From assembly GCA_963719515.1 (NCBI GenBank), contig CAVRCJ010000011.1, forward strand, positions 32,001-96,000: a stretch of DNA of 64,000 nucleotides. Reading direction: 5' to 3'. The DNA is from an uncultured cyanobacterium (GTDB taxonomy: Bacteria > Cyanobacteriota > Cyanobacteriia > CAKZMO01). Shown in pieces: positions 1,113 to 59,350 of the stretch (positions are counted from its first letter, which is position 1; each line of letters starts with the position of its first letter). The position numbers were made by a program, and so were the translations under genes. Below the pieces are notes generated by a model that saw only the letters and a program-made list of their open reading frames with translations, made no database searches and was not told where the DNA came from.

Positions 1113-1255
1113 CGGAGCCGCCTACCACCCGGCGTGCCAAAAAAAATCCCAAATATTTCCCCACTACGGTTGCCACCACCGCCAATAATGCCCTATTGTC
1201 TTGAGCTAGAGCCGTGGTCCCCATGGTTCTAGTCTCCCAAAAATTCGGTCGGGCG

Positions 1256-1431
1256 GAGCTGCGGGTTGGTGCAAACAACCCGTAGCCCCTAATCCCACAA
1301 GACAGAGGTAGCTGTCTCGGTAGGACTGAGGTTGATCATAAGAGATACCCGTGTCATCCCGAGCAAAACACCGTTTTGGGGGGTGGCCGGTTTTTGGGGG
1401 ACTCCAACCCAACACATAAACGGAGTCCCTC
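1256..1431 (+). promoter_or_regulatory. Candidate structured leader RNA, copy A (three hairpins, U tract, RBS-sequestering hairpin)
   Basis: P1 1258-1286, P2 1300-1317, P3 ~1353-1387 then TTTTT; GGGACTCC/GGAGTCCC covers the GGAG; same layout at 34968-35123. Confidence 0.6.
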
Positions 1432-1782
1432 ATGTCATCTCAATTCCATCCGCTGTCCTTGGCTCAAGAGGCGGCACAGCTCGCAGTGCGGCAGCATCTC
1501 GCAGCGCAGGCTGCCCTGCAGTCGCCTCCCCCCACGGAGGCCGCACCGCACATCCCCGCCCTCATCGAGCCAGCGCCCGCGCCGGGGTGTGAGCATCTGC
1601 GTCACATCATCATCGGCTCTCCCGAAGGCGTGCAGGAAGCGATCGCCCGTCTCCATCTGCTGCATTACATCGAGCGGCACTACTGGACGCCCCTCATCAC
1701 CATTGGGGAGCAGGGCCTCCACCTCACCCCCGCCCACGGCCAGGTGCTCAGCTATCTAGTGCAGCAGCGGCCCCTCCGCTAG
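1432..1782 (+). CDS. Small cyanobacterial hypothetical protein (HIIIGSP...LHYIE...WTP family)
   Basis: ORF with RBS; C-terminal half aligns by eye with the 35255-35563 product. Confidence 0.8.
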   Translation: MSSQFHPLSLAQEAAQLAVRQHLAAQAALQSPPPTEAAPHIPALIEPAPAPGCEHLRHIIIGSPEGVQEAIARLHLLHYIERHYWTPLITIGEQGLHLTPAHGQVLSYLVQQRPLR

Positions 1783-32705: not shown

Positions 32706-34041
32706 CAGGGTAAGCGCAAGAAAAAAACCGATATAAGATGCTATGGGGGAACGCAGGGACAACCACCATAGGCAGAGACATGACGAGCAAAGGATTTGGT
32801 AAATCTACACCGCCCAATGAAGCGTGCAACCGAGCCCAGGGAGTGCCAGTCTTTGTCGATGGAGACAACAGCGTACAGCAGCAGTGGCTGGGTACCTTTA
32901 GTGAGCTGAAAGACCCACGAGGGCCACAGGGGATAGAGCATCCGTTTTTGAGCATTGTGATGATAGCAATTTTGGCGACTATCGGCGGCGCAAGGGGATG
33001 GGAGGACATCGAAACCTATGGGGAAAGCCACGAGCAGTGGCTGGGGCAGTTTCTTGAATTGCCTAAAGGGGTGCCTAGTGCTGACACCTACAGACGGTTA
33101 TTCGAGCGCATCGAGCCAGAGGCGCTAGAGCGGTGCTTTTTGTTATGGGTGAAGCAGATTGCCCAAGTGACAGGAGCTCAGGTGATTCCGATTGATGGCA
33201 AGAGCGTGCGCGGCTCCTACGACCGAGGCAAAAAGCAGTCGGCATTGCACCTAGTAAGTGCCTGGAGCAGTGAGCACCAGCTGCTGCTAGGGCAAGTGAA
33301 GGTAGAGAGCAAGAGCAATGAGATCACGGCTATTCCAGCGCTATTGGAGCTGCTCGACATCAGTGGGTGTATCATCACGATTGACGCAATGGGCACTCAG
33401 CACGAGATTGCTAAGCAGATTGTTGCCAAAGGCGGGGACTATGTTTTGTGCCTGAAGGCGAACCATCCGACCCTCTCAAAGCAGGTGAGTGACTGGTTCG
33501 ATAAAGCTCAGGCAACGGGATTTGAAGGCATTGAGCACAGCTACGACCGGCGATGTGACGGAGCTCATCAGCGCATTGAGCATCGGCAGGTGTGGGCAGT
33601 GCCTTTGAGTGCGATTGAACCTGTGCATGGTCAAGCCCAGTGGTCAGGGCTGCAAAGCATCGTCATGGTCAAGCGCGTGCGGCACCTGTGGAACAAGACG
33701 ACTCAAGAGACGATGATGTATTTGACCTCACTCCCTTGTGATGCCGTCGCCATTGGCCGGGCAATTCGCACCCATTGGAGTATCGAAAACCAGCTGCACT
33801 GGGTACTCGATGTGACTTTTGGCGAGGATGCTTCTCGCATTCGCTCGGGGCATGCCCCACAGAATATAGCCCTACTGCGGCGCATGGCTATCGGTATGCT
33901 CAACCAGGAAACCTCTAAGAAGCGAAGTCTAAGTCAGAAGGCGAAGCGAGCCTCGATGAGTCCTGACTATATGCTCACAGTCCTCTCCGCCGCACTCTCG
34001 CCATAGCACATTTTTATGATGTTTTTCTTGCGCTTACCCTG
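32706..34041 (+). mobile_element. Complete ISAs1-family element (1336 bp)
   Basis: TIR CAGGGTAAGCGCAAGAAAAA; 10-bp TSD ATGACTACGG at 32696-32705 and 34042-34051. Confidence 0.96.
32738..34006 (+). CDS. ISAs1 transposase
   Basis: IPIDGK, KSNEITAIP, TIDAMG, HWSIENQLHWVLDVTFGED. Confidence 0.96.
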   Translation: MLWGNAGTTTIGRDMTSKGFGKSTPPNEACNRAQGVPVFVDGDNSVQQQWLGTFSELKDPRGPQGIEHPFLSIVMIAILATIGGARGWEDIETYGESHEQWLGQFLELPKGVPSADTYRRLFERIEPEALERCFLLWVKQIAQVTGAQVIPIDGKSVRGSYDRGKKQSALHLVSAWSSEHQLLLGQVKVESKSNEITAIPALLELLDISGCIITIDAMGTQHEIAKQIVAKGGDYVLCLKANHPTLSKQVSDWFDKAQATGFEGIEHSYDRRCDGAHQRIEHRQVWAVPLSAIEPVHGQAQWSGLQSIVMVKRVRHLWNKTTQETMMYLTSLPCDAVAIGRAIRTHWSIENQLHWVLDVTFGEDASRIRSGHAPQNIALLRRMAIGMLNQETSKKRSLSQKAKRASMSPDYMLTVLSAALSP

Positions 34042-34111
34042 ATGACTACGGCGATCTCTATAGCTTTCTCAAGATCAAGTGTTCGCTCAAAAGTCATAGC
34101 ATTTGCTAGTC

Positions 34112-34148
34112 ATGCCGAGGCGATCTCGCTGCGAGATCGCCTCGGCAT
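34112..34148. repeat. Perfect 18-bp-arm palindrome
   Basis: ATGCCGAGGCGATCTCGC-T-GCGAGATCGCCTCGGCAT. Confidence 0.8.
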
Positions 34149-34216
34149 TCTATTCGCCCTCAAACAACAAGCTACAATTCACGTAGTGTCCAGAGAGTTT
34201 CAGGTAAAAGCTCCTC

Positions 34217-34453
34217 ATGATCCAACCTACACTCTTAGAAAAGCTAGAAGCTTTGCCCGAGCACCTTCAGGTCGAAGTGCTCCACTACGTTGAGTTCTTG
34301 CTAGAAAAGAAAGTTAACGGCAAAGCTATCCCTATACATGAATCACCTAAGGCGCAGGACGAAAACCGCTACGGCTATGGCAGCATGGCTGGACAAATTA
34401 CCATGTCAGATGATTTCGATAAGCCTCTAGAAGAATTAGCGGAATACATGTAG
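34217..34453 (+). CDS. DUF2281-like antitoxin
   Basis: LPEHLQVEVLHYVEFL, GSMAGQITMSDDFDKPL. Confidence 0.85.
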   Translation: MIQPTLLEKLEALPEHLQVEVLHYVEFLLEKKVNGKAIPIHESPKAQDENRYGYGSMAGQITMSDDFDKPLEELAEYM

Positions 34454-34454
34454 C

Positions 34455-34601
34455 ATGGCAGCGCTTTTAGATACCCATGTGCTGCTGTGGTACGTGATGG
34501 CTGATGACAGGTTAAGCGATCGCGCTAAATCACTCGTCGACACGCGGTCAGACCTATTTTTCAGTACCGCTAGCCTATGGGAAATTTCAACAAAGATCAG
34601 C
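34455..34601 (+). pseudogene. Truncated PIN/VapC toxin
   Basis: LLDTHVLLW...ASLWEISTKIS, then unrelated sequence. Confidence 0.85.
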
Positions 34602-34799
34602 GGCAAAAATCGCGTAGGGCTGCTTGCGAAGCGCTGCCTTGAGCAGAAAAATCAGCGTCGTGATGATCTCATTATGCTCAGGCGCGCCGCCAGTCATCGG
34701 AACAATTTCTCCAGCGCGGTATTCGCTGCGGGTCTCTGACGCGACCTCCAAAGCAAGGTAGTCTTCAGCCGTGTAGGTTTTACCGGCAGCAATAACCAT
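34587..34799 (-). pseudogene. Truncated Uma2 endonuclease (N-terminal part)
   Basis: YTAEDYLALE..RSEYRAGEIVPMTGG..HN; ends at AADL. Confidence 0.85.
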
Positions 34800-34967
34800 A
34801 GCGTTCCCTGTGTATTGCCCCTCAGCCCCGAGGAGAGCTATCGCTATCCTAGCAAGCTAACGAAAGGGCCATTGACCCAACCGCCCCCCATGCTGTAACG
34901 TGATACGCCATAGCCCTAATACAGCTATACGCCTATGTAACGAACCAACGCAACAAGCCATTATTAC

Positions 34968-35123
34968 GCTCCCTGGAAGTGCAGCAACACGACCAGAGAG
35001 CTAAGCCCCAGCGCTGAAGGAAGCAGCACGGAGGCCTACGAGGCATTATGCCACTCCCGTAGCGCCACCCTGTTTGTCCTGCCCAATTTTTACGGGCACC
35101 AGCGGGGTGGCTTGATTGTTTTT
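34968..35123 (+). promoter_or_regulatory. Candidate structured leader RNA, copy B
   Basis: P1 34968-35001, P2 ~35011-35029, P3 35064-35111 then T-rich; shared motifs with 1256-1395. Confidence 0.6.
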
Positions 35124-35185
35124 GGCCCATCATCGGCGATCGCCGTTCGATCGATAAACCATCGCATCGATACGGCATCGGCACG

Positions 35186-35213
35186 GTAGGGCCATGGCAT
35201 GCCATGGCCCTAC
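35186..35213. repeat. GTAG-type REP palindrome
   Basis: GTAGGGCCATGGCATGCCATGGCCCTAC, perfect 28-bp palindrome. Confidence 0.8.
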
Positions 35214-35254: not shown

Positions 35255-35563
35255 ATGACCGCGACGAATTACAGCGATCGCTCCAATCAATCCGATCATC
35301 ACCCCAACCCCCCGTACGGGCACAGCACGCTGTGCCCCAACCCAACCAATCGCCCCAATCCCTTTCCCCAGCCTCAAGACCCCAACAACGACGTTCTGCA
35401 AATCATCGCCATCGGCCCCCGCACCACCGTCGACCACTACATGATTCGCCAGCACCAGCTCGGCTACGCAGAACCCAAAGAGTGGAGCCCTCCCCTTCCC
35501 GCCCCCGACGGTATCAACACCATGCGCATCCTCACCAAGCGCTTCCCCAAACGGCGAGACTAG
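35255..35563 (+). CDS. Small hypothetical protein, homolog of 1432-1782
   Basis: LQIIAIGP...HQLGYAEPKEWSPPLP...MRIL; GGGAG RBS before ATG 35255. Confidence 0.8.
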   Translation: MTATNYSDRSNQSDHHPNPPYGHSTLCPNPTNRPNPFPQPQDPNNDVLQIIAIGPRTTVDHYMIRQHQLGYAEPKEWSPPLPAPDGINTMRILTKRFPKRRD

Positions 35564-59198: not shown

Positions 59199-59234
59199 GA
59201 AAAAAAATCCCCGACCAAAAGCTGGTCAGGGATT
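59199..59234 (-). terminator. Intrinsic terminator downstream of tatC
   Basis: AATCCCCGACCA..TGGTCAGGGATT stem with a T run on the minus strand. Confidence 0.7.
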
Positions 59235-59350
59235 GAATCAGGGTGCATCTACCACTTCACTATTCCAGGAGAGTAGGGGCGGTCAGGACAAAACGTAAGC
59301 TGTTCGTTTTGTTCAGGGCCAAAGGGTGCGGCATGTCACCCTGGCAGTCG

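Follow-up and report, generated by a model that had tools for sequence, protein, structure and literature searches.

A dispersed cyanobacterial cassette family with a two-hairpin leader, a candidate cis-antisense RNA and a small soluble protein

In the genome of an uncultured cyanobacterium, a window of 64,000 nucleotides contains two distant small open reading frames (1432-1782 and 35255-35563, here copies A and B), each preceded by a leader that differs in sequence from the other and seems to fold in the same way. This raises the question of what such a leader does, and what kind of gene it controls. The original prediction took the two frames for homologs with a common protein core, and both points were borne out: the proteins share 13/37 identities (pairwise E 3e-4), and one profile iterated on this genome matches both (E 2.8e-47 and 5.4e-18). 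The order of elements is also the same in both leaders (P1, CTAA linker, P2, P3), and these fold better than their shuffles (z -3.9 for A, -2.9 for B). The number of copies, given as two, was far too low. A search with an nhmmer P1-P2 DNA profile returned 70 matches, of which 66 were kept after removal of two reverse-strand duplicates and two weak, unrelated matches, and a covariance model found 69 (E<=0.01); the iterated protein profile detected 81 frames, which merged into 77 loci. As expected for a motif linked to this protein family, a family ORF lies downstream of 64 of the 66 leaders, and 59 of these 64 ORFs keep an open frame over 85 codons or more. No Rfam family reached its cut-off for the leader, which agrees with the failure to assign it to a named family before; over the whole window, NsiR1 was the only match at gathering score (59200-59254, minus strand).

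Together, these elements make up a cassette of about 610 bp, composed of a sigma-70 promoter, a leader of about 220 nt and an ORF of 80-125 aa (Table 1). The sense promoter pattern was found in 65/66 copies, against 18% in the background, and DNA similarity between copies spans the -35 box (window position 1170) to the stop codon (1782), where the homology of copy A to other copies stops. The protein is present in at least 25 of the 201 genomes of the phylum, with up to 22 candidates scored per genome, and the family forms 317 clusters at 50% identity. Matches to the RNA model were found in 13 of 151 genomes, and a family ORF comes next in 18 of the 25 matches in other genomes. Cassette relatives occur in other cyanobacterial families, and the named relatives of both proteins are cyanobacterial hypothetical proteins. 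Members are also carried by 12 plasmids, in one case with parG on one side and a replication gene on the other, in another case ahead of an integrase; by eye, the leader is absent from two Nostocales plasmid copies. A single-protein query of phage collections gave no match. No account of the family was found in the literature open to search (subscription journals and bioRxiv supplements lay beyond reach), and four linker motifs hit eight rows in an sRNA table of Nostoc PCC 7120 (PMC4734099 Table S3), none of them leader-like by eye.

Table 1. Features of copies A and B in the window, and family members that lack a leader.
Feature	Position	Strand	Remark
Copy A sense promoter	1170..1199 (-35 1170-1175, -10 1194-1199)	+	left edge of inter-copy homology
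Copy A P0, mRNA 5' hairpin	1207..1232	+	P0 class: sense strand stabler in 36/52
Copy A segment X	1232..1250	+	predicted partner of Y in nascent mRNA (ON state)
Copy A P1	1255..1289	+	variable loop 1, 1269-1275
Copy A P2 core	1301..1316	+	variable loop 2, 1306-1311
Copy A predicted antisense RNA	1237..1327	-	~90 nt, putative ends
Copy A antisense -10 box TATGAT	1335..1340	-	-35 not evident
Copy A P3	1353..1387	+	
Copy A segment Y	1389..1405	+	U tract and anti-Shine-Dalgarno
Copy A segment Z	1422..1430	+	Shine-Dalgarno; predicted to pair with Y in OFF state
Copy A ORF	1432..1782	+	116 aa; Pro-rich variable N-terminus, ~65-aa beta-alpha-beta core
Copy B sense promoter	34872..34899	+	
Copy B P1	34968..35001	+	variable loop 1, 34982-34987
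Copy B P2 core	35012..35028	+	variable loop 2, 35017-35023
Copy B predicted antisense RNA	34946..35037	-	full-length sub-threshold SymR match 35037-34965
Copy B antisense -10-like box CATAAT	35044..35049	-	fails strict TAnnnT test
Copy B P3	35064..35111	+	
Palindromic insert in copy B leader	35131..35213	.	leader ~296 nt vs median 218
Copy B ORF	35255..35563	+	102 aa, second subfamily
Leaderless members beside HTH genes	G000 C5:122423-122716, C14:59749-60045; L003-L006, L008, L010; L108		

The central point of the original prediction, that differing stems still pair, was confirmed by covariation over 64 copies: 17 of 19 pairs vary on both sides, and 87.7% of P1/P2 cells are paired on the plus strand versus 30-44% in slid controls, with kinship among the copies inflating the shuffle test for covariation. 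The mismatches, however, were not evenly distributed, as 108 of the 1254 plus-strand cells are A·C and 20 are G·U. An A·C mismatch on the plus strand is a G·U pair on the minus strand, and there 94.4% of the cells are paired (44 copies, compared with the 64 used for the plus strand). The minus strand is the stabler one in 61/66 copies. When this was resolved by region in the 52 of 66 copies with a callable promoter and start, the minus-strand advantage was present in 49/52 copies for P1-P2, in 13/52 for P0 and in 23/52 for P3 to the ATG. The predicted antisense RNAs of A and B each fold into a pair of long hairpins plus a small one, which is U-rich in A, and reach z -5.0 (-41.3 vs -36.4 kcal/mol for the sense strand) and z -4.8 (-44.7 vs -29.4 kcal/mol), respectively.

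The sequence GAGG..AT(C/T)AT, previously regarded as a leader motif, reads as a minus-strand -10 box. An antisense TAnnnT was found 8-28 nt beyond P2 in 52/66 copies, compared with 17 in shuffled windows and 26 on the sense strand, for a range that was picked after the motif had been noticed. Of 25 loci in other genomes, 13 of them belonging to one genus, 21 have the box at a distance of 14-16 nt, and it falls outside the span of the model with which these loci were found. The strict box is absent in 14/66 copies, including copy B, and no antisense -35 was evident. In addition, the best three of the four matches of the Rfam SymR model (RF01809) in the genome are antisense to family leaders, at 38.9, 33.4 and 25.8 bits against a gathering score of 61; the second of these is copy B, matched end to end, while copy A has no match. 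Judged from sequence, it is thus very probable that a cis-antisense RNA controls the translation of the family ORFs. Among the options listed earlier, this supports antisense control of a type I toxin-antitoxin-like module, on the strength of the strand asymmetry, the antisense -10 box, the variable loops described below and the sub-threshold SymR match, while a metabolite riboswitch is unlikely and an attenuator gained no support as the conserved output; for the C4/icd form, no repeated targets on the sense strand were found in the genome.

The loops themselves turned out to be the opposite of what was first thought. The P1 apex and the AGG(T/A)AG loop of P2, described as conserved, vary more than any other positions in the family, so that their likeness between A and B is largely coincidence. 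Over the 66 copies, with a few placed out of register by the loop parser, all 66 P1 loops and 60 P2 loops are distinct, as are all 66 loop pairs. Across 20 disjoint pairs selected for similar leaders, 142/274 sites (52%) differ in the P1/P2 loops, 123/627 (20%) in other hairpin loops and 194/2264 (9%) in stems. Likewise, when 14 disjoint pairs drawn from three genomes are compared, 95/195 loop sites (49%) versus 77/578 four-fold sites (13%) differ, a contrast inflated by picking these pairs for low synonymous divergence; in 14 leader-chosen pairs, the pooled pS is 0.38, near the loop divergence. In a sister species, the closest relative has retained the leader, but both of its loops have changed. 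Against strict uniqueness, one pair among the 13 copies of G017 shares both loops.

Such variety could also arise if the antisense RNA is real and the loops are merely free and hypermutable through hairpin-loop inversions, with the copies cross-repressing as one regulon. A cis-antisense RNA mirrors any change in a loop, which makes the change costless, and one loop and its exact reverse complement do occur in one genus. Loop variety therefore seems to come partly from inversion, pointing to a possible mutational hot spot, and the pooled pS also agrees with this explanation; no exact loop inversions were found within this genome. However, change is 2.6 times lower in the leader's other hairpin loops, and even the closest copies of equal loop length differ at 2/14 sites among 945 comparisons, which makes this explanation quite unlikely. 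Alternatively, the two variable loops, each of 6-7 nt and set in a constant frame, look like guide RNAs and could be directed at foreign nucleic acid, for instance RNA of phages or plasmids. The hairpins could also act as single-stranded DNA (in the manner of attC sites, retrons or HUH elements), for which the minus-strand G·T pairs would be suited as well. A search with paired 7+7-mers for 43 copies gave the self peak only: at spacings of 0-100 nt no paired target turned up in the genome, nor was there one within 1.5 kb (a 6-mer version was saturated and uninformative). As the fixed -10 box points to transcription, and neither reverse transcriptases nor recombinases recur beside the copies, we consider a guide or single-stranded DNA function very unlikely. 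With no paired target elsewhere, the cis partner remains as the target of the loops, and the loops probably give control that is specific to each copy.

How pairing at P1 and P2 could affect translation is suggested by the remainder of the leader, in which segment Y is predicted to pair with either X or Z. In the 43 of 52 copies with a callable Y, X:Y pairing averages -16.0 kcal/mol, compared with -9.1 when X is shuffled and -12.6 when it is taken from other copies, and the X:Y helix forms in 39/43 copies when the RNA is cut after Y. The hairpin proposed to bury the GGAG of copy A (1398-1405/1422-1429) was predicted as claimed. In contrast, P3 and its U tract, proposed as a transcript end near 1395, were not called as a terminator, and at least 7/43 copies have no U tract; the conserved output is predicted to be a hairpin over the ribosome-binding site rather than transcription termination. 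In the full leader at equilibrium, Y and Z are paired with or without a block on the antisense region (accessibility down in 9/52 copies and up in none). Because Z is buried in both cases, the switch must be kinetic, and in this model the ON state would last only briefly, while the leader is being transcribed. If the sense strand acted by itself, as a metabolite riboswitch or an attenuator, the alternative X:Y and Y:Z pairings and the conserved linker would be accounted for; with P1-P2 tuned to the minus strand and neither a terminator call nor an Rfam riboswitch, this is highly improbable, and a metabolite riboswitch would be expected to conserve its loop and junction bases, whereas here the loops are the least conserved part.

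The ORFs are under purifying selection (dN/dS 0.23 in 14 pairs). At 102-116 aa, with a highest 19-residue hydropathy of 0.58-0.83 and no membrane segment, the proteins of A and B are not short hydrophobic type I toxin peptides. The core was modelled at pLDDT 89.5 as strand-helix-strand (beta-alpha-beta). SymE has an AbrB-like fold; the best Z of the core model, 4.3, was to unrelated ferredoxin-like chains. VIA-align gave MinE as its best match for a first model (Z 4.4), with 4.3 as the best value and 3.6 for MinE in the second; as these top scores are tied, generic ferredoxin-like halves, we do not claim a MinE-like division inhibitor. Foldseek returned nothing at E<=0.001, with no DNA-binding or recombinase fold recognised, searches of the PDB by sequence reached E 0.69-1.6 at best, and the ESM Atlas yielded unnamed cyanobacterial clusters only (score 0.82-0.85). 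Neither A nor B matched a Pfam family at E<=1; Pfam, NCBIfam and PHROGs, queried with single proteins and with 75 members, gave nothing in common and no toxin family, and no transposase was matched in Pfam or NCBIfam. Some members without a leader lie head-to-head with XRE/Cro-type HTH genes (Table 1): two in this genome by resemblance, one on a Scytonema plasmid (L108) and six (L003-L006, L008, L010) in one other genus; Pfam confirmed the HTH for the two genes checked. Two separate routes of repression, through the leader or through an HTH protein, suggest that free expression may be costly. Several ORFs of subfamily A (e.g., G000 C1:327202-327642 and C18:27964-28422) have an in-frame insert of about nine codons at a fixed place that other copies lack, similar to a small dispersed repeat.

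Taken together, these features would fit the following sequence of events. The sense promoter would transcribe the leader, and X would capture Y, leaving the ribosome-binding site Z briefly free. An antisense RNA of about 90 nt would touch the two leader loops first and then cover P2, P1 and X; once X is covered, Y would fold onto Z and translation would stop. The protein would hence appear only where the matching antisense RNA is lacking, as on arrival in a new cell, on loss of the copy or on shut-off of transcription. A new copy that shares its loops with a resident would be silenced in trans and dispensable, so that new loop pairs would be favoured. We give about even chances to the reading that these are self-contained cassettes in which a growth-inhibiting protein is silenced by its own antisense RNA, in a type I toxin-antitoxin-like manner. 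Its weakest step is that the protein is a toxin, which we infer only; most frames are intact, which speaks against it, and the modelled fold would not obviously give the stored translatable mRNA needed for classical post-segregational killing. More doubtful is an extended version, with some 66 mutually orthogonal antisense lock-and-key pairs on one chromosome, evolving under diversifying selection and each guarding a novel soluble toxin. The cassettes would then spread selfishly without a transposase, each new loop pair being an independent addiction or drive element in polyploid filamentous cyanobacteria, and the SymR-like RNA device would serve other small-gene families as well.

The same antisense lock could instead control a factor for establishment or mobility that is produced as a burst when the cassette enters a cell, with new loops escaping resident repression as in plasmid incompatibility groups. 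A kinetic switch fits such a burst, and homology bounded by the -35 box and the stop codon, with mostly unrelated flanks, fits a mobile unit, as do the plasmid-borne members with their parG, replication gene and integrase neighbours. HIP1 was found within 100 nt upstream of 36/64 copies (13% background) and downstream of 19/64 (13-14% background), with an upstream control that is not matched for intergenic DNA. Two copies of G158 (L027, L030) begin, by eye, just past the 3' end of an apparent integron-integrase-like gene. Loop changes are reported to make ColE1 origins compatible (PMC9458437). Still, no terminal repeats or target duplications were seen by eye in the flanks of nine close pairs, and the 124 nearest ORFs of 62 copies contained no Rep family and no recurring partner, mobile gene, reverse transcriptase or recombinase. 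Rather, they were mixed, including housekeeping, defence-like and IS genes and three psbA (psbA-type genes adjoin L036, L037 and L064). As the protein also has no recognised DNA-binding or recombinase fold, we regard an establishment factor as unlikely, and retain the growth inhibitor as the preferred reading. With neither terminal inverted repeats nor target duplications seen in these flanks and no transposase match, the cassette does not qualify as an insertion sequence or MITE, and with no Rep family among the same 124 ORFs it does not qualify as an antisense-controlled plasmid replicon.

Several known systems share parts of this design. The C4 RNA of P1 and the CI RNA of P4, with icd and kil, carry two loop-borne specificity elements that control a small gene; these RNAs originate in the sense transcript and depend on repeated targets. 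For the family, no such targets were found in the genome, and there is no Rfam C4 match and no match in the phage collections searched. In IncI/IncB plasmids, the Inc RNA blocks a long-range activating pairing, and CopA/CopT and pT181 are other antisense systems of plasmid copy control. Unlike these, the cassette is chromosomal and dispersed, without a linked replication gene or origin. Specificity in hairpin loops is described for ColE1 RNAI/RNAII in PMC9458437. According to PMC5416894, AapA/IsoA of Helicobacter pylori has two stem-loops in the 5' UTR that make loop-loop contact, occurs in several copies per genome, and each IsoA represses its cognate mRNA only, two loops setting the specificity of AapA1/IsoA1. 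The two leader stem-loops and the predicted loop-set specificity of the family resemble this arrangement. However, AapA1 is described there as a 30-aa peptide that is activated by 3' processing and whose duplex masks the ribosome-binding site directly, whereas the family protein has no membrane segment and the copy number is far higher.

SymE/SymR of Escherichia coli resembles the family in its RNA, a two-hairpin cis-antisense RNA of similar size, and the SymR model has full-length matches, far below cut-off, in three family copies. In PMC4147584, SymE is described as a type I toxin of 113 aa that is not hydrophobic; like the family protein, it is soluble and of about 110 aa; it is named there with RalR as an exception to the short hydrophobic peptides. 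The same source places SymR over the ribosome-binding site and start codon. The predicted family RNA, in contrast, ends about 100 nt upstream (1327-1237 in copy A, with the start at 1432) and would act through X, Y and Z. Further differences are the 66 copies with distinct loops and a protein without a Pfam match at E<=1; with no Pfam family for A or B and no NCBIfam family common to 75 members, membership of the SymE family was rejected. In Microcystis, MsoT1/MsoA1 was reported in 2025 as another candidate cyanobacterial type I pair; it differs in being described as SrnB-like in phenotype (PMC12390103). On these comparisons, the family does not qualify as SymE/SymR, C4, a riboswitch class or an insertion sequence.

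Loops are known to set cognate specificity in plasmid groups and among a few paralogues (AapA/IsoA); in this family, if true, they would do so across 66 copies in one genome, and since loop changes can be counted, one could test directly whether RNA specificity diversifies under pressure from cross-talk between paralogues. If true, the finding would also add a large antisense-controlled family to the cyanobacteria, along with a protein family without an assigned function, and would provide a ready set of orthogonal translation switches.

The surroundings of the two window copies show several further features. Upstream of copy A, a pentapeptide-repeat gene on the minus strand (3-962) appears split into two frames. 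On the 3' side of copy A, positions 1948-2345 contain what we take to be an IS200/IS605-type end or HEARO-like repeat, which also lies upstream of G000 C1:181918, where it has split another copy between leader and ORF. Upstream of copy B (32738-34799) are a transposase frame that resembles ISAs1, a Uma2 fragment, and a DUF2281/PIN pair in which the PIN frame is short. The palindromic, REP-like insert in the leader of copy B lies between P3 and the ribosome-binding site, as it does in the copy at G000 C11:490090, and related palindromes come after other family copies. Finally, the two-hairpin RNA model also matched in front of unrelated small ORFs without a Pfam match, at L121/L129 (G029:C2) and L122 (G035:C2). 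At L122, a Shine-Dalgarno sequence and start lie directly 3' of the second hairpin, which is the geometry of SymR, and a tyrosine integrase gene is found nearby.
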